A DNA stretch of 64,000 bases from Dehalococcoidia bacterium (GCA_963662615.2 CAXXSR010000002.1:589014-653013), one strand, 5' to 3'. Shown: positions 30,841 to 64,000, numbered from the stretch's first letter. The notes: generated by a model from the letters alone, not told the origin. Translations and numbers: made by a program.

Positions 30841-31668
30841 TTGCCCATCCAAGTCACCCTCATCGACCACACGCGCGACCCCGTTCGCGCCCTCTACATG
30901 GCCTACCGAGTCTGCTACTCGGCGCTCACGCCTCAACAGGTCCTCGCTCGCATCGACGACGACCGCATCACCCAGGCCAAGATGGCCACCTTCGTCGCCG
31001 AGCGCCTGGCCACCGGCCACACGTCGCCCCTGGAGCAGGTCTGGTTCGAGTTCGGCATCAGCGGCGTCTCGCGCGCCTTCAGCCACCAGTTCGTCCGCCA
31101 CCGCATCGGCATCTCCTTCGAGCAGCAGAGTCAGCGCTACGTCACCTACAAGGACGGCTCCTTCCCCTTCACCGTCCCCAAGACCGTCGATCAGGCCGGC
31201 ATGACCGGCGACATGGAGGCCCTCTTCGAGCAGGCCGGGCAGCTCTACCAGAAGATGATCGATAACGGCGTCCCCGCCGAGGACGCCCGCTTCCTCCTGC
31301 CCAACGCCACCAACACCAACTTCAAGATCGCCGTCAACTTCGCCGAGCTGCTGCACATCTGCGACCAACGGCTCTGCACGCGGGCGCAGTGGGAGTTCCG
31401 CCGCGTCGCCGCCCTCATGCGCGCCGAAGTCGTGCGCGCCGTCCCGGAGCTGGGGCGCTACCTCCAGCCCAAGTGCGGCGAGCTTCGCATGGGCTACTGC
31501 GACGAGGACTACGACGCCTGGCTCGCCTGCCCCATCGGCCGCAAGCGCCCGCACAAGCAGGAACTCTTCCGCCTCTACGACGCCTACCGCAAAGGCGACC
31601 TCAACGACCTCGACGCCGCCGACTTCGCCCTCATCGAGCAGCAGCAGATCGAAGGTGCCATTTCATAG
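30841..31668 (+). CDS. thyX: FAD-dependent thymidylate synthase
   Basis: GHTSPLE, VSRAFSHQFVRHRIGISFEQQSQRY, EDARFLLP, RAQWE. Confidence 0.96.
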   Translation: MPIQVTLIDHTRDPVRALYMAYRVCYSALTPQQVLARIDDDRITQAKMATFVAERLATGHTSPLEQVWFEFGISGVSRAFSHQFVRHRIGISFEQQSQRYVTYKDGSFPFTVPKTVDQAGMTGDMEALFEQAGQLYQKMIDNGVPAEDARFLLPNATNTNFKIAVNFAELLHICDQRLCTRAQWEFRRVAALMRAEVVRAVPELGRYLQPKCGELRMGYCDEDYDAWLACPIGRKRPHKQELFRLYDAYRKGDLNDLDAADFALIEQQQIEGAIS

Positions 31669-31826
31669 GCCCATCACGCCAATTGCCCTTGTCTTAGGTC
31701 TTCATCTCCGACGTTGGGAGGAGACGCAGGTCACAGCCAAGTGGCAATTGAGCGCAACTGGAAGCAGCGGCAAGCTGGGTCCGGGCACTGCCCCTGGGTT
31801 CTTTGGCAACAGGTCCCCGAACGGGA

Positions 31827-31868
31827 CTTCCCATTTCTCCACCTCATTTGTGGTAGCGTAATGGGAAG
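31827..31868. promoter_or_regulatory. inverted repeat, candidate operator/promoter of the two-gene module
   Basis: cttcccatt...ccac-ctcattt-gtgg...aatgggaag, 35 bp before ATG 31904. Confidence 0.6.
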
Positions 31869-31903
31869 CGGCGGCTCATCGTAGGGAACTCGGGAGGACT
31901 TCG

Positions 31904-32560
31904 ATGGTAGATAACGCCACTGTCCGCGCGGAGCCTGTTCCTGTTGCGAGCCGGCTCTACGAACTCGGTGTCGGCGAGAACATCTTGCGCGATGCTGTCA
32001 AATCAGGCTCCCAGCACGTCTTCGACTGCACCGCCAACGATCCACCCTGGCTGCCCGGAATGCTTGGATCGGGAAAAATAATTCGCGCTCTTCGAGATTT
32101 GCTTCTGCCCCAAGGTTGGAAGCGGAGCAACGAGCGGAACTATGCGATAACGATTGACCCTACTGGCACCTACGCAATTGCCGTTGCAGCGGGCGATGAT
32201 CACACAGACGAAGCGGACAAAGATCCTTCTACCCGGTCAGAAAAAGGGTCGGCAGCGAAGGATGCCGTCGCTGAAAACCAACTGACCTTCTCGCTGATTG
32301 ACAAAGATTTCCCTCGGGCGGCGGAGCCTGGAAGCAATCCGAAACAAACGTGGATACTTCTCTATTTCATTGACGAGGACGCCGACGAAATTAGGTGTGA
32401 GATCTCGTTGCCGGCGCGACTGAGCGACGATGGACACGTGAATAGCTGGCGAGAGCGGGTCATCCTCCGAGCAATCGAGTTCGCCGAGCCGCCGCCACAG
32501 AAGACAGATCATATGGCGGACGACGAGATCGACGTTCCAGTTGAACGGCGGGCCGTTTAA
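31904..32560 (+). CDS. hypothetical protein, candidate toxin/effector of the adjacent XRE-IrrE gene
   Basis: GGAGG RBS; lower GC; motifs AIAVAAGD, TWILLY, CEISLP, WRERVIL. Confidence 0.8.
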   Translation: MVDNATVRAEPVPVASRLYELGVGENILRDAVKSGSQHVFDCTANDPPWLPGMLGSGKIIRALRDLLLPQGWKRSNERNYAITIDPTGTYAIAVAAGDDHTDEADKDPSTRSEKGSAAKDAVAENQLTFSLIDKDFPRAAEPGSNPKQTWILLYFIDEDADEIRCEISLPARLSDDGHVNSWRERVILRAIEFAEPPPQKTDHMADDEIDVPVERRAV

Positions 32561-32567
32561 ACCTGCG

Positions 32568-33665
32568 ATGTTGGCGTTCAATCCGCAAAGACTCGATCTT
32601 GCACGGAGACGACGCGGGTTAACGAAGATCGAACTCGCGTCGGCGGCGAAAATCTCTCGCCGCATATTGACCGGGTACGAACGCGGCGAATACGAACCCA
32701 GCCCTGGAACCCTGGCGGCGATGGCTGACAAGCTGCGGTTCCCTGTTGAGTTCTTTGGCGGGCCCAATCTCGATCAACCACCAATCGAGGGTTCTAGCTT
32801 CCGCGCCCTCAGCAGGCTTACGGCAAAGCTACGGGACCAATCGCTCGGCGCTGGCGCTCTCGCACTGGCACTGTCTGACTGGATTGATGCACGGTTCGTG
32901 CTCGCTGAGCCGGAAGTTCCACGGCATCAGGGCATCGACCCAGAGACGGCAGCCATGGCTGTCCGCAGCGAGTGGGGGCTAGGGGAACGACCGATTCGGA
33001 ACATGGTGCACTTGCTTGAGGCGCATGGAGTCCGTGTGTACTCCCTCTCCGAGGAGTGCGCAGAGATGGACGCGTTCTCCTTCTGGCGTGGAGAGCTGCC
33101 CTACGTATTTCTAAACGCCATGAAGGCAGCGGAGCGTAGTCGCATGGACGACGCGCATGAACTCGGACACCTTGTGCTTCACTGGCGAGGCGGTGCCCGC
33201 GGTCGTGACGCTGAACGTGAAGCAGACCTGTTCGGTGCGGCATTCCTCATGCCACGTGACAGCGTTATCGCCGGTGTCACGCGCGGCGCAAGACTTCGCG
33301 ACATCATCAAATCGAAGAGCCAATGGAAAGTGTCCGTGACAAACCTGACCTACCGCATGCACACGGTGGGTCTGTTGAGCGACTGGGAGTACCGCAGTCG
33401 TTTCATCGAAATCAGTAAGAAGGGGTACCGAACGAGCGAACCTCGCCCGGTGCAACCGGAGAACTCGCAGGCCCTGGAGAAGGTGTTCAACCAACTACGG
33501 CAGGAAGGCGTCTCTCACGGCGACGTAGCCCGCGAACTCTGCATACCTCCCGACGAACTAAGCAAGCTAATTTTCGGTCTCGTGTTGACGCCAGTTGGCA
33601 CGGAGCCGCGGGGTGATCAGCGCCCGTCTAATCCGCCCACCAGATCAAGGCTGCGACTTGTCTAG
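32568..33665 (+). CDS. XRE-HTH + ImmA/IrrE Zn metallopeptidase
   Basis: FNPQRLDLARRRRGLT...YERGEYEP HTH; AHELGHLVLH; EREADLFGAAFLMP. Confidence 0.93.
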   Translation: MLAFNPQRLDLARRRRGLTKIELASAAKISRRILTGYERGEYEPSPGTLAAMADKLRFPVEFFGGPNLDQPPIEGSSFRALSRLTAKLRDQSLGAGALALALSDWIDARFVLAEPEVPRHQGIDPETAAMAVRSEWGLGERPIRNMVHLLEAHGVRVYSLSEECAEMDAFSFWRGELPYVFLNAMKAAERSRMDDAHELGHLVLHWRGGARGRDAEREADLFGAAFLMPRDSVIAGVTRGARLRDIIKSKSQWKVSVTNLTYRMHTVGLLSDWEYRSRFIEISKKGYRTSEPRPVQPENSQALEKVFNQLRQEGVSHGDVARELCIPPDELSKLIFGLVLTPVGTEPRGDQRPSNPPTRSRLRLV

Positions 33666-33710
33666 GATTACGGCCGCCATGCCCCGGCGTCCTCCCGCTA
33701 CCCTGCCCCC

Positions 33711-58316: not shown

Positions 58317-59501
58317 ATGCCCGGCGCACTCGACGGGATCCGCATCCTGGATTTCAGCCGCTATCAGCAGGGGCCGTTCGCCACGGTCATGCTCTCCGAC
58401 CTGGGCGCCGACGTGATCAAGGTGGAGGAGCGCGGCGACGGGGACGTGGGGCGGAGGATTGGCCTGCGTCCGGACGGCTGGTGCGCCTACTTCGAGGCCC
58501 ACAATCGCAATAAGCGCTCCATCACCATCGACGTCCGTAAGCCCCAAGGGCGCGAGATCATCTACAAGCTGGTCCCGGAGTTGGACGTCATTGTTGACAA
58601 CTTCCGCCCCGGCGTCATGGAGCGTCTACAGCTCGACTTGGAGACCCTCCGCCGTTACAACGCCGCCATCATCACCGCCAGCGCCACCGGCTTCGGCGAG
58701 CGGGGCACGGAGCGCGAGCGCCCTGCCTTCGACTCCGTTAGCCAGGCGATCGGCGGGATCATGGTCAACCAGGGCGGCGGCCCCGGCCGGCCGCCGCTCA
58801 GCATGATGGGGGGCGCAGCCGACCAGATCGGCGCCATGGTCCTCGCCCTCGGCATCGCCGCCGCCATCATTGCCCGCGAACGGCAGGGCCTGGGCCAGCA
58901 CGTGGAAGCGTCCTTGCTCGGGTCGCAGCTCGCTCTGCAGGCGTTCCAGATCACCGACTTCCTCCACGACGGCTTCCAGCACCCAACGCCGCAGCGGCAG
59001 ATCCCCACCTTCGCCTACTACCCTACCGCCGACGGCAAGTGGCTCTCCCTTGGCATCATCGGCTCGAATAAATGGTGGCCCGAACTCTGCGACGCTCTGG
59101 GCCGGCCCGACCTCCGCGACGACCCGCGCTTCGCCGACCCCTTCGCCCGCGACGACAATCGCGAGGCGCTGCTGGCGGAGCTCGACGCCATCTTCGCCCG
59201 ACGGCCTCGCGACGAATGGATCCGCGTGCTGGAAGCGGCGGGCGTCCCCTGCGGTCCCGTCAATGACTACGCCGCCGTCGTCAAGGAGCCGCAGGTGCTC
59301 GCCAACGACTACGTCACCACGTTGGACCATCCGGCGCTGGGCACGGTGGGGGTGATCGGGTCGCCCATCACCATGTCGGAGACGCCCGCCGGACCGCGCC
59401 ACACCGGCCCGGAGTTGGGACAGCACACGGAGGAGATCCTCCTGGAGTTGGGCTACTCCTGGGATGACATCGTCCGCCTCAAGGATGGGGAGGTCATCTA
59501 G
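58317..59501 (+). CDS. family III CoA-transferase (CaiB/BaiF)
   Basis: LDGIRILD, LGADVIKVE, NRNKRSI, NFRPG, GPELGQHTEEIL. Confidence 0.95.
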   Translation: MPGALDGIRILDFSRYQQGPFATVMLSDLGADVIKVEERGDGDVGRRIGLRPDGWCAYFEAHNRNKRSITIDVRKPQGREIIYKLVPELDVIVDNFRPGVMERLQLDLETLRRYNAAIITASATGFGERGTERERPAFDSVSQAIGGIMVNQGGGPGRPPLSMMGGAADQIGAMVLALGIAAAIIARERQGLGQHVEASLLGSQLALQAFQITDFLHDGFQHPTPQRQIPTFAYYPTADGKWLSLGIIGSNKWWPELCDALGRPDLRDDPRFADPFARDDNREALLAELDAIFARRPRDEWIRVLEAAGVPCGPVNDYAAVVKEPQVLANDYVTTLDHPALGTVGVIGSPITMSETPAGPRHTGPELGQHTEEILLELGYSWDDIVRLKDGEVI

Positions 59502-59666
59502 GGCTCGACCGCCTCCGCCACGCAATCAGGCGGGCTGGTCCGCGGCCTGGCGAAACGCCCCCTGGGGCGTTGGGCCCATGGGGAATTGGGTTCGTTTCGT
59601 AATTCCGCTCTGGCTTCCGGCTCCTCAGATTTTGATGGGCGTGAATTCAACTCGGCTCGGTCGGTG

Positions 59667-59763
59667 CTACGCTCAAGATGATCGCCGACCTGGGGGCCGC
59701 TGCTGGACCTGGACGGCTATCGACTCGGACACCAAGCTGATCGTGTCCTGGCAGGTGGGCGGC
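59667..59763 (+). pseudogene. internally deleted IS1-like transposase fragment
   Basis: ATLKMIADLGAA joined out of frame to WTWTAIDSDTKLIVSWQVG. Confidence 0.7.
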
Positions 59764-59844
59764 GTGGGGTGGGTGATCCCCACGCCGGTGTGATTGGCGC
59801 CGCCGTATCGACCCTCGATCGCGCCAGGATCGGGAGGGGGGATC

Positions 59845-60309
59845 ATGATGATCGGCAACCTGCGAGGCCGCGCACAGGCCTGGCGATCCTGGCTCTTCGC
59901 GCTCGGGCTGGCCAGCGTGGCGTTCCTGTTCTGGCTGATCATCGGCGGCGGCTCTGGCTCGATCGCCGTCGCGGTGGGCGGCACCGCGCCGACCGGGGCC
60001 GACCGGTACCTGACCACCAGCCAGCTCGAGGCCGCGCTTGATGCCAGCCCGTGGCCGCCGCGTCTCCATGACGAGGTCACCAGGCTGGCGATCTGTGAAT
60101 CCGGGCTGTGGGGTCTATCGACAGTCTGGCTTGATACGCGAGCTGAGCGGATCACGGCCCGGGAGCACTCCCTGGGTGTGCTGCAACTCAACGTCCGCGC
60201 TCGCCCGTGGCTGGACGCCCTCGATCTCTTTGACGTCAGGCAGAATCTCATCGCGGGCTACACCATCTGGTTGGAGCGGCGGGGGTTCGACGATTGGAGC
60301 TGTGGATGA
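59845..60309 (+). CDS. membrane-anchored lysozyme-like/SLT transglycosylase
   Basis: GGAGG RBS; TM; AICES, LGVLQLN, LFDVRQNLIAGYTIW...DDWSC. Confidence 0.72.
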   Translation: MMIGNLRGRAQAWRSWLFALGLASVAFLFWLIIGGGSGSIAVAVGGTAPTGADRYLTTSQLEAALDASPWPPRLHDEVTRLAICESGLWGLSTVWLDTRAERITAREHSLGVLQLNVRARPWLDALDLFDVRQNLIAGYTIWLERRGFDDWSCG

Positions 60310-60519
60310 GGGCCGCGTCCACACACCGGAGAGGCCACCTCCAGTGCAGGCACCCTATTTTGGCACGCCCGCGTCGCGGAGGCCGGTGACTTGCCCACCG
60401 TGCGACACTGCACGCGGCAGGTCGCAGAACCGATGATGAAAGCGACGATGTAGTCAGCTCTGGCGCGTTCTATTCGGTTGGCTCCACTTATTCAGCGGGA
60501 TAGCGGCAGAGGTGCGATC

Positions 60520-60814
60520 ATGCCTGGTGAATCGTTCGCTCCTGTGCGGAGAGAGTTGATGAGCGAGACGATTCGCAGGCTGGAGACACGCATCCGACGG
60601 TACGAGCGTCGATACGAATGCACCTCCGCCGACAAGTCGGGTGCGGTGCGGCGACGCAAAAGAGACCGCTGCAATCAGCCGATGATTGATGGACTACCGG
60701 ACCCTCCACCGGCTCCGCGACAAGTCCGCCGCTGGAGCCACGATTGGTACTCGTACGAGGGGTATCGGACGATCCACGATCGGCGGCAGCGAGACCTCAA
60801 AGACGCTGGGATAA
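60520..60814 (+). pseudogene. disrupted antitoxin-like gene
   Basis: RLETRIRRYERRYECTSA continues in another frame as KETAAISR*LMDYRTLHRL (frameshift plus TGA at 60683). Confidence 0.55.
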
Positions 60815-61194
60815 TCCTTGACAACCGCATCGCCTTCCGCGAGTCCGTCGACGCCTCAGGGGACCTAGTTGAGGTTCGCGTCAAAGGGCGAGTGCACTGT
60901 GCCGAGGGCGCGATTGTCGGTGTCTACAAGGGCCTGGAGGTTCGCCGAGACGTCTCCAAACGCTACGAGGTTCGTGGCATCGACTATGTCTATCATGCCT
61001 GGTTGCACGGGAGCGAGATTGCCCTGATTCGGTACTGGGCAGCCCACGGAATGGACGATCTTCACGTCCATCGCTTTGATCCAGCCACCGGGTTGGATGA
61101 AAAGCGATCGATATCCTTCGAAGAGCCTCCGACCCTCGACGCCATCCTCATTGAGGCAGTTGAGCTGGCGCAGCAGACCCAAGTGTTGCGTTAG
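60682..61194 (+). CDS. DUF6516/TumE-like putative toxin; start uncertain
   Basis: YVYHAW...LIRYWAAHG...LHVHRFD...PTLDAILIE. Confidence 0.55.
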   Translation: MIDGLPDPPPAPRQVRRWSHDWYSYEGYRTIHDRRQRDLKDAGIILDNRIAFRESVDASGDLVEVRVKGRVHCAEGAIVGVYKGLEVRRDVSKRYEVRGIDYVYHAWLHGSEIALIRYWAAHGMDDLHVHRFDPATGLDEKRSISFEEPPTLDAILIEAVELAQQTQVLR

Positions 61195-61378
61195 AGAGTT
61201 TTGCACTTCCCTCAGATCTTGGTGGGAGTGAATGCAACGTAGCGCTGTCGGAGCTGCAGCTCCGAGGGCACAAGGTGTTCCCTGAATCGCCGGACGATCC
61301 ACGCGGGTCCATGCGGCCGGTCCATGCAGCGGGTCCATGCGACGGCGCCGCGGGGGAGCGCTGCAGCGGGGTTGCGCC

Positions 61379-62083
61379 TCATTCGGGGTCGACCGCGCCG
61401 TCGATTGCTTTCACATCGATGACTTTGGGCACGTCGAGGACTGGGGCCGCGTCGAGGACTGGAGCCGCAGCGGCGTCGGGATTCCTTCGCAGCTCGCGCA
61501 GTCGCTCGAGCTCACGGAGCGCGCGGTAGAGCGCACGCTCGATCGCGGTTTCGTAGCGCGAGAGCTTTGAGATCGTGTCGCCCCGACGCGTATTCGCGCG
61601 AAATGCTGCAGCAAGAACCGTGGCGTCGGAATCCCGCCAGGCCTCCGCCTTTTCGGCCAGCGCGACGGCCTTCCGATGCGCTTCCTCGTCGACGATGCGA
61701 CTGGCCCCGCGTACCAGCTCCTCGAGAGGATCAGCCTCATGCCTCTTCGCGTCTCGCCTCCTTCGCGCCGCCAGGATTTCGTACTTGTCGAGTGCAAGGA
61801 GTCCCGCCTCAATCCGGCCGCAGCGGCGCAGCCGCCAGAGCGCGGACACGATCCGCTCGACGAGTGCGTCCTCCAGCTCCCCGTCCGGTTGGAGATCGTT
61901 CCGAAGCCCGTCCGTCAGCGCTTGGAGCTCGGCGGCGTCTTCGTCGTCGAGGAGGAGATCCCGTGCCAAGAGCCCGTGCTTGGCGGCGTTTCGGCCTGCC
62001 CGCCGCTTGCCGTTAGCGGTCCGGGGCCCCGTGCTCTGGAGCGCGTTGCGCTGATTGGCCTGCCGCTGGTGGGCGCTGGTCAC
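61379..62083 (-). CDS. hypothetical protein with the ANQRNALQSTGPRT...NAAKHGL motif
   Basis: Also LVERIVSALWRLRR and SRYETAIERALYRALRELERL. Confidence 0.8.
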   Translation of the reverse strand: MTSAHQRQANQRNALQSTGPRTANGKRRAGRNAAKHGLLARDLLLDDEDAAELQALTDGLRNDLQPDGELEDALVERIVSALWRLRRCGRIEAGLLALDKYEILAARRRRDAKRHEADPLEELVRGASRIVDEEAHRKAVALAEKAEAWRDSDATVLAAAFRANTRRGDTISKLSRYETAIERALYRALRELERLRELRRNPDAAAAPVLDAAPVLDVPKVIDVKAIDGAVDPE

Positions 62084-62354
62084 GACAGCAGCCTCCGTTC
62101 GTCCCTTCGCCCGCACATGGGTGGGCCAGTATTGATCAAGCGATTATCTCATTAACTGATTATCAAAAGTGTTCACCTAGCCGCAGTGAGAGGTTGCGCG
62201 GCAAGCGCCTCCACAGGAGCGCCTCCACATGAGTAGCCCACGCTGTGACTTGTCGTTTCGTCGCTGCTTCATACTCACCAGCGCGAAAGAAGTCGTTGGC
62301 GATCGCCTGCAATTGTTCGAAGCTGTAGATGCGCGACACGGCAAACCTCTTCGA

Positions 62355-63497
62355 TTAGTTCAAGACGGGGAGTCTGTGGCCCCAACCGTCCGTAAGTGCC
62401 GACTGTGTGACGATGTCACGAACCCTGACGAGCATTTCGCGACTGTGCGACCACTGGATCACCTCGCGGTGTTGTAACTGTCCAACGACGATCCCGGGAT
62501 TCACCCCTAGCATGGCCGCAAACTCTCGAATTTTCTTCTTGCTGAACAGAGGCCCGACGCGCGCGATGAAGGCCTCCAGATCGCCCTGTGAGATCAGAGC
62601 CGCCTCCGCCCATTCGTCTGCTCGTGCCTCGAACTTTGGCCTATCGTGATCCTTGCCTTCCCCAATGAGGTTCACATCAAGCGGCGGACGCGCTGCTAAT
62701 CCGTCTTGGTGAAACACGTGCGCTAGCTCGTGCATCAACGTGTACCAGAAGGCGTCAATCCGGTCGTACCGTAGGGACACAACTACGACCGGCGAAGCGG
62801 CGTCAAGCCATAGGCAAGCACCGTCGATCTGCGTCCCCAGTAATGGCTCAAGTATCAGGAGCCTCACGCCGGCCTCCGCGAGGGTTGTCGGCACTCGACG
62901 GAGATCCTCGGGATCTTCCATGAATGCCTTCAACTGCGGCATCAAGTGAGCGAAGCTCTTTTTAGAATGCGGCGCTACGTGAATGCTCGAAGCCAAGTGG
63001 CGCGCCCGAATGTGCCAGGCGATTTGTGCCGGGCTCGGCTCGAAGTGGGGGCCGCCCTGTCGTGCTGCGTAAGGCAACACCGCCGGTGTTTCGTCCAGAT
63101 TGTTGATACCTAGAAATCGGCAAACATGCTGCTCCAGCACATCGGGATTGGCCGACGGCTCAAGCCAGCCACGCTTGATTATTTCGCGAACCGGTGCCTT
63201 CGCGTAGAGACGGGCGCGCTTTTTGACACCGGAGTCCTTCTTCGAGCGCGATAAAGCGAGACGGTATGATGATTCCATGTTGAGCCACGATTGGGCACTC
63301 GTCTCGAACGCATCGGCGAGCGCCTGGGCGGTTTCAAGCGTGATCCCGCGCTTACCAGCGATAATCTCACTGACGAATGCCGGAGTGCGGCCAAGAATCT
63401 CGGCGAAGTCGGACTGCGACCAACCGCGAGCCCCTAGCTCCTCACGAATCAAGTCGCCTGGCGGGAAAGGCTCGATTGGTACACGCTCGTTGGCCAT
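62355..63497 (-). CDS. higA: HigA-type XRE antitoxin fused to an ImmA/IrrE peptidase
   Basis: PPGDLIREELGARGWSQSDFAEILG..GKRGIT..WLNMES; RIDAFWYTLMHELAH. Confidence 0.9.
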   Translation of the reverse strand: MANERVPIEPFPPGDLIREELGARGWSQSDFAEILGRTPAFVSEIIAGKRGITLETAQALADAFETSAQSWLNMESSYRLALSRSKKDSGVKKRARLYAKAPVREIIKRGWLEPSANPDVLEQHVCRFLGINNLDETPAVLPYAARQGGPHFEPSPAQIAWHIRARHLASSIHVAPHSKKSFAHLMPQLKAFMEDPEDLRRVPTTLAEAGVRLLILEPLLGTQIDGACLWLDAASPVVVVSLRYDRIDAFWYTLMHELAHVFHQDGLAARPPLDVNLIGEGKDHDRPKFEARADEWAEAALISQGDLEAFIARVGPLFSKKKIREFAAMLGVNPGIVVGQLQHREVIQWSHSREMLVRVRDIVTQSALTDGWGHRLPVLN

Positions 63498-63512
63498 CCG
63501 ACTCCCCTCCTT

Positions 63513-63814
63513 CTAGTGGCAGTCAGCGATCTCAACGACGTAGATGGCCTTTGTCGCGCCTTTCTTCTTTTCGAACTCCACGATCAAGCGCCACTGGTCG
63601 TTGAGTCGTATCGAATGCTGGCCCCCCCCGATTTCCTGACAACTTCTCGAACCGATACGAGCGCATCGTGTAAAAATCGCGTTCGTCCGGCGCTTGCCTG
63701 ATCTGGTCTACGCGACGACGGAACATCCTCACGACTTCCGGGGGGGAAATTTGAGCGAGCACGAGCGTCGCGCTCCAGCTCCTCCAAATCACCATCCCTG
63801 AATCGCACTTCCAT
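63513..63814 (-). pseudogene. higB: HigB/RelE-family toxin with two +1 homopolymer frameshifts
   Basis: Reconstructed MEVRFRDGDLEELE..NFPPEVVRMFRRRVDQIRQAPDERDF..FEKLSGNRGGQHSIRLNDQWRLIVEF..VVEIADCH*. Confidence 0.88.
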
Positions 63815-63917
63815 CGCTCGCGGCCACATCCTAGTCGATATAGGTTAATTATGCAAGTATCGTTATATCATACTGCGACACATAGGCATATTGATGAGAT
63901 CTCCTGATCGATCAAGC

Positions 63918-64000
63918 ATGATGGTCGCTCTGAGGCGGCTAGACCCAGAGCAGCACGCCCGTATCGTCGCGGCGTTGTTAGTGGAGGAAAGCTCCGCCTG
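63918..64000 (+). other. possible start of an IS1-like transposase (truncated by window)
   Basis: LRRLDPEQHARIVAALLVEESS resembles the N-terminus of the family seen at 59667. Confidence 0.4.

Follow-up and report, generated by a model that had tools for sequence, protein, structure and literature searches.

A RosmerTA-type operon in a Dehalococcoidia bacterium and a predicted sliding-clamp-binding loop in its toxin

The two-gene block and its composition

The window analysed in this study is a stretch of 64,000 nucleotides from a Dehalococcoidia bacterium (GCA_963662615.2, CAXXSR010000002.1:589014-653013). It carries two genes on the + strand, flanked by thyX and a SAM methyltransferase gene and referred to below as rmrT (ORF1) and rmrA (ORF2), with the ATG of ORF2 at 32568 located 7 bases past the stop of ORF1. 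The ORF1 protein terminates in DDEIDVPVERRAV, and the ORF2 protein contains the stretch RMDDAHELGHLVLH. The genes and the features discussed in the following sections, in coordinates of the window, are:

31827-31868, no strand assigned: 42-bp imperfect palindrome, 35 bases upstream of rmrT, candidate RmrA operator
31854-31859, + strand: -10-like hexamer TAGCGT with TG before it, inside the palindrome; the -35 position is a poor match
31904-32560, + strand: rmrT toxin gene (ORF1), 218 aa, matching PADLOC RmrT PDLC03935
32207-32209, + strand: toxin residue D102, a position held by G in 142 of 146 homologues
32255-32257, + strand: toxin residue A118, a position held by T in 126 homologues
32279-32290, + strand: Q126-L127-T128-F129, clamp-binding-type motif of the QLxLF/QLxF-type pattern in a variable loop of the toxin
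32519-32557, + strand: conserved C-terminal tail DDEIDVPVERRAV of RmrT, candidate for a ClpXP degradation tag or for a strand that binds a partner
32568-33665, + strand: rmrA antitoxin gene (ORF2), 365 aa, in which an XRE HTH (about residues 7-62) is joined to a zinc peptidase of the M78/ImmA-IrrE type
32799-32804, + strand: F78-R79 in the linker between HTH and peptidase, candidate self-cleavage site, present in 120/120 aligned proteins and 25/25 loci
33150-33152, + strand: antitoxin residue D195, two residues before HExxH
33156-33170, + strand: HExxH zinc motif (H197, E198, H201), intact and invariant in 120/120
33213-33215, + strand: E216, likely third zinc ligand, invariant in 120/120

The block has a GC content of 58.7% compared with 68.6% for the window, and a two-state scan placed the low-GC segment at 31631-33670. 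Third-position GC is 0.60 in ORF1 and 0.66 in ORF2 vs. 0.86-0.94 in nine neighbouring genes, and, among 2-kb intervals, an equally low GC was otherwise seen only between about 59 and 64 kb, at the window's right end. Because both overall and third-position GC are low relative to the window and the neighbouring genes, the two-gene block is likely of foreign origin and horizontally acquired. An earlier note on this DNA had described a low-GC block that starts right after thyX and recovers near 33670, containing a 218-aa ORF and, after a 7 bp gap, an HTH + HExxH protein; the scan, the gene coordinates and the Pfam matches of ORF2 (HTH_3 and Peptidase_M78) agree with this description. The same note had reported no integrase, and a scan at E 1e-6 likewise detected no integrase or transposase families among the 69 further ORFs of the window. 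Its term "inserted" is carried by the deviant composition; the two flanks have no direct repeat of at least 9 bp in common that could be a target-site repeat. No terminator was found at the operon end. The genes surrounding rmrTA in the window are housekeeping genes without defence neighbours, and the setting is not a defence island.

Family membership and distribution

ORF1 matched the PADLOC RmrT profile PDLC03935 with an E value of 6.7e-56 (profile positions 5-206 of 207), and ORF2 matched the RmrA profile PDLC03949 over nearly its full length with an E value of 5.6e-144. By these profile matches, the ORF1-ORF2 pair is almost certainly a member of RosmerTA. This is the family that the earlier note had proposed, adding that a strong RmrT match would confirm the system and remove its novelty; the match to PDLC03935 did both, so system-level novelty is gone. 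RosmerTA as reported by Millman et al. 2022 has the same toxin-first order with the HTH-zinc peptidase second, and there is no system-level difference here; it is a known bacterial toxin-antitoxin system linked to defence against viruses, and in the Millman preprint its antitoxin is a zinc peptidase while the function of its toxin is given as unknown. In the literature searched by the names of RosmerTA, its two genes and related pairs, mostly open-access main texts, no fold, clamp motif or operator was found for this RmrT clade.

All 147 aligned toxin homologues matched both PDLC03935 and PDLC03932. The neighbourhood survey that had been suggested alongside the original reading showed that the two genes co-occur, with an HTH-peptidase containing HExxH encoded directly after the toxin at 25 of the 25 loci examined. 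These loci comprise 4/4 loci from a GTDB scan, 20/29 plasmid records and 1/2 phage-collection records, the nine plasmid records left out being mostly close kin of included ones; at one locus the toxin gene is split (L012) and at one the antitoxin breaks off (L001). The GTDB scan was run with a narrow alignment and yielded only 4 loci out of 96 candidate stretches, and the genome range is therefore under-sampled. Toxin relatives fall into 1855 clusters at 50% identity. Relatives in E. coli include three toxins with E values of 6.5e-45 to 1.8e-28 against the toxin family profile, and one E. coli relative (L026, 1486-3275) directly follows prophage tail-fibre genes.

Defence or toxin-antitoxin genes are frequent neighbours of the related pairs at L005, L009, L010, L011, L013, L017 and L001, and include DNA methylases, a restriction endonuclease, RES-Xre, AbiEii, NACHT, HipA and a possible nuclease ORF that we take to be of the SRA-HNH type. 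No methyltransferase partner is kept across the loci examined. A search for longer fused forms gave a single protein (P0288), which looks like a toxin-antitoxin read-through produced by a frameshift and was disregarded.

Two previously described pairs can be likened to rmrTA from their published descriptions. Vmi480-Vmi470 of Vibrio mimicus has the same gene order, sizes of 198 + 362 aa, a 5-bp gap and an upstream promoter, and is toxic in E. coli (PMC4671572). E101_02645-02644 of E. coli has the same order, spacing and sizes and makes clpP essential (bioRxiv 2020.05.25.114553). The E101 accessions occur in none of six E. coli loci examined.

The toxin fold and its clamp-binding-type loop

ORF1 has no match in Pfam or NCBIfam, in line with the initial statement that it holds no nameable domain. 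Across the 147 toxin homologues no Pfam family was matched by more than one protein, sequence searches of solved structures with the toxin returned chance matches only, and a viral fold library gave no match at E 0.001. Toxin relatives in the Atlas are hypothetical clusters, with one set carrying DUF5986 on 14% of its members. The AlphaFold model of the toxin (pLDDT 92.5) is a soluble alpha/beta protein, and no transmembrane or hydrophobic segment was found in the sequence (highest 19-residue hydropathy 0.82).

In the aligned toxins, a variable loop of 12-33 residues follows the conserved N125 and opens with Q-L-[S/G/T/E/D]-(L)-F. Among its forms are QLSLF (8 times), QLDLF (twice) and QLSF (12 times), with QLSF and QLSLF the commonest; the window toxin carries the short form QLTF. 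The consensus of clamp-binding peptides is of the QL[SD]LF type, and we take QLSF and QLSLF to be the textbook sliding-clamp-binding motif. A strict QLxLF/QLxF-type pattern is located in the loop of 72/147 homologues and outside the loop in 0/147, compared with a mean of 3.5 and a maximum of 10 for shuffled loops and with 12 of 1814 segments of equal size taken from RmrA proteins; the other 75/147 homologues do not have it. A looser pattern, which was chosen after seeing the data, is found in 122/147 (shuffles: mean 28.6, maximum 43). When scored in the toxins of the collected loci, the motif was seen in 11/26, three of the segments having been mis-extracted, and six Streptomyces plasmid toxins (L014, L019, L021-L024) showed no clear clamp motif. 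These six Streptomyces toxins make up a subgroup whose loop differs and whose palindrome is a variant; they may act on another target or carry a variant of the motif.

A complex model of RmrT with E. coli DnaN as a stand-in clamp scored 0.64 vs. 0.26 for the best of three controls, a score that may reflect likeness to the many clamp-peptide complexes already solved. The mark used for such scores is reached by 116/157 solved pairs and 2/215 mismatched pairs. Contact agreement between model runs was at least 86%, with a partner pLDDT of 72, and the predicted interface places toxin residues 125-133, 135-137 and 139-140 on DnaN residues 172-177, 240-247 and 360-366, which presumably constitute the known peptide pocket. 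Combined, the loop pattern and the complex model suggest, with fair confidence, that RmrT targets or docks on DnaN.

The SocAB toxin of Caulobacter crescentus is reportedly removed by ClpXP, and the SocAB antitoxin is said to be a proteolytic adaptor, not an HTH-peptidase. According to PMC12795458, the SocAB toxin blocks the DnaN pocket predicted here for RmrT, and suppressors of RipA, a Rosmer toxin of Streptococcus pneumoniae, map to the same DnaN pocket. RipAB (Spr1630-Spr1629) is, like the present pair, a Rosmer pair with an XRE + ImmA-type antitoxin; its toxin acts on the DnaN pocket, where RmrT is only predicted to bind, and the pair makes clpX essential (PMC12795458). It differs in subfamily, as ORF2 scored 100.6 bits against the 335 cut-off of the spr1629 model NF052239. 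The main text of PMC12795458 contains none of the terms "binding motif", "QLS" and "AlphaFold".

The structural matches of the toxin bear on a second reading. Here RmrT would have the restriction-endonuclease fold and be catalytically active through a rewired site (T43, K114, E166, R185), with the clamp motif serving only to recruit this nuclease to the DNA it cuts, at replication forks or nicks. Only 9 of 48161 solved chains reach Z 5 against the toxin model, and eight of the nine, led by NaeI, are restriction endonucleases or resolvases of that fold, with the superfamily labels of Hjc and 1y1o presumed. The best Foldseek row is EcoRV (E 0.046), and the comparison with NaeI gave Z 7.4-7.7 and an rmsd of 3.8-4.0 over 135-138 aligned residues at 5-11% identity. 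No match has Z of at least 8; values below 8 may, by the tool's own warning, reflect a common arrangement, and models without a true match fall in the same range. Thus, the structure prediction that had been suggested for 31904-32560 delivered a confident model but a weak fold match, and the toxin is possibly a derived restriction-endonuclease fold.

Conservation is also compatible with an active site, with G115, E166 and R185 invariant in the 147 homologues, K114 being K or R in 145/147, and T43, K114, N125 and W182 near-invariant. In the Rousset preprint, the mild substitution T46S in the E101 toxin abolishes its clpP dependence, which would suit a catalytic residue if T46 corresponds to T43. 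NaeI/EcoRV-type PD-(D/E)xK enzymes are the top structural matches, yet their canonical catalytic motif is absent from the RmrT sequence: in column counts over residues 70-127, neither an acidic residue nor a lysine is conserved on the two core strands, the strand that apparently matches (D/E)xK reads A-I-A-V-A, and the strand before it has no conserved acidic residue. A nuclease activity of RmrT is thus an unlikely though not negligible alternative to clamp binding as such. Equally tentative is its extension to the whole clade, in which the toxins would dock through QLxLF and destroy DNA at the fork after release by ssDNA-triggered self-cleavage of the antitoxin, with ClpXP keeping their levels low.

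Regulation by RmrA and state of this copy

The 42-bp palindrome upstream of rmrT consists of two arms (31827-31846 and 31849-31868) that are 80% complementary. A fixed-arm count gave 16/21 pairs, and 0/60 shuffles were as good; an inverted-repeat score that stopped at mismatches had failed to set the element apart (188/200 shuffles as good). In a leave-one-out profile the palindrome scored 34.5 compared with -5.9 for the next best + strand site of the window, and profile matches above 8 were obtained in 22/26 regions from Proteobacteria to Actinobacteria, with the profile seeded by 8 hand-picked elements and with several of the Streptomyces loci being close kin. At a few loci, the fixed-arm count and the profile picked different repeats. 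The position of the -10-like hexamer begins with TA in 15/22 elements, and TTG is present 17 bases upstream in 8/22; the window copy has 0/6 matches at its -35, and a stock promoter scan of this copy gave no site. A reading of the palindrome as an RNA hairpin was set aside because the mismatches have no strong G-U bias (37 G-U vs. 24 A-C) and because the element overlaps the likely promoter. From its sequence and conservation, the palindrome is probably the operator of RmrA, that is, a site of the autorepression type.

The RmrA model (pLDDT 91.1) has CapP as its best fold match (E 2.4e-5). Its best sequence match among solved structures is 9vzy (E 2.9e-8), which has the domain plan HTH + IrrE-type peptidase and which we take to be VapB52. 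VapB52 cuts itself when given ssDNA, probably at its "FR motif" F75-R76, the proposed self-cleavage site, as described in PMC13273310; self- or repressor cleavage had been proposed earlier for the HTH-peptidase family (PMC2701414, PMC10440598). VapBC52 (Rv2514c-Rv2515c) and CapP/CapH resemble the present pair in that the antitoxin joins an HTH to an IrrE-type peptidase and carries an FR motif in the linker (PMC13273310). They differ in that the VapBC52 toxin is a PIN tRNase and not of the RmrT family, and in that the cysteine-switch loop of CapP/VapB52 is absent in RmrA. The stretch that connects the second His with the third zinc ligand has no Cys in the window or in 24/25 loci (present in 1/25), and the trigger of RmrA may therefore differ from that of CapP/VapB52. 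The RmrA C-terminus at 33651-33662 reads L-R-L-V and is conserved after a disordered stretch; it is a possible docking strand or protease tag.

The toxin tail is not part of the folded core in the model and is conserved, with an I-D-V-x-V-x-R-R-like pattern in 100/147 toxin homologues and a pair of neighbouring basic residues among the final six positions in 122/147, such that the tail ends in basic plus small residues. We take it to resemble ClpX tags, and it may fit a ClpXP degradation tag about as well as a peptidase site. A ClpXP tag is plausible because pairs of this kind make clpP or clpX essential in the strains that carry them (Rousset preprint; PMC13566846; PMC12795458).

The earlier note had suggested that the acidic C-terminal tail could be the recognition or cleavage site of the peptidase; on this model, RmrA would neutralise RmrT by recognising and cutting the tail, and a phage signal would block the protease. 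The conservation of the tail, its position beyond the core and the intact HExxH and E216 would all permit such a reaction, but the invariant Phe-Arg pair sits in the linker of RmrA itself, which makes F78-R79 the better candidate site. Furthermore, VapB52 cleaves itself and can dispense with its zinc motif for toxin binding (PMC13273310), and HTH repressors are cut by ImmA-type proteases (PMC10440598, PMC2701414). Cutting of the tail by RmrA is accordingly improbable. Self-cleavage of RmrA is favoured over it because the invariant linker resembles the VapB52 site, and by this analogy a cut at F78-R79 is somewhat more likely than not.

Overall, the preferred reading, which is held by a small margin of confidence when taken as a whole, is that of a horizontally acquired RosmerTA operon in which RmrA is repressor and self-cleaver and RmrT a clamp binder. 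The HTH of RmrA would bind the upstream palindrome and repress the operon, while RmrA would restrain RmrT by binding it and not by cutting it; ClpXP may assist by degrading RmrT from its C-terminal tail. Upon DNA damage or a phage signal, probably single-stranded DNA, the RmrA peptidase would cut its own linker at F78-R79, lifting repression and freeing the toxin. The QLxF loop of RmrT would then enter the peptide pocket of DnaN and compete with polymerases and other clamp partners, so that replication stalls. The resulting cell arrest would serve as narrow-range abortive phage defence or as plain addiction, and the chances that this particular copy defends against some phage are evenly balanced.

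The locus itself is one more copy of RosmerTA, and what is new is a testable clamp-binding prediction for the toxin. The clade is widespread and includes E. coli relatives; this prediction turns its "toxin of unknown function" into a subject for specific tests, and the conserved palindrome and FR linker are ready probes of how RosmerTA is switched on. If the clamp model is true, a named motif would account for both the finding on RipA and the recurrent dependence on ClpXP, a large natural family of DnaN-pocket binders would be added, and reviews that name RmrT a membrane toxin would be over-generalising.

The copy in the window has several odd residues at conserved sites and may therefore be weakened. 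Toxin D102 and A118 are off-consensus, and a 99% identical toxin relative (P0001) keeps G and T at these positions; on the antitoxin, A184, D195 and T238 each occur in 0/119 homologues. Together with the missing defence neighbours, these changes would suit a pair that was acquired once and is now a decaying or weakened passenger, losing function and without a defensive role in its host. Against this, both reading frames, the palindrome, the FR pair, HExxH and the clamp motif are all intact, and the load of changes is not extreme, since an equal number of private changes at highly conserved sites is found in 26/146 toxins and 11/119 antitoxins. Decay or sequencing error is thus possible but not indicated, and a passenger in decay is a quite improbable account of the locus.

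A membrane action of RmrT is highly improbable, as the membrane-depolarising RmrT of Gordonia phage Kita has predicted membrane helices (PMC10440598), whereas the window RmrT is a soluble alpha/beta model without a transmembrane segment, even though reviews extend depolarisation to RmrT generally (bioRxiv 2024.10.26.620412; PMC13566846).

The low-GC right end of the window encodes a second HTH + HExxH (HELAH) protein of 380 aa (62355-63497, - strand), which a tblastn search with RmrA did not pick up at E 0.01. Upstream of its gene, two overlapping frames at about 63532-63829 (- strand) look like a frameshifted small toxin gene, presumably of the HigB/RelE type. Within 59000-64000, GC drops to 0.55-0.63 near the end and several ORFs are without a Pfam match; this segment is possibly the edge of another island.
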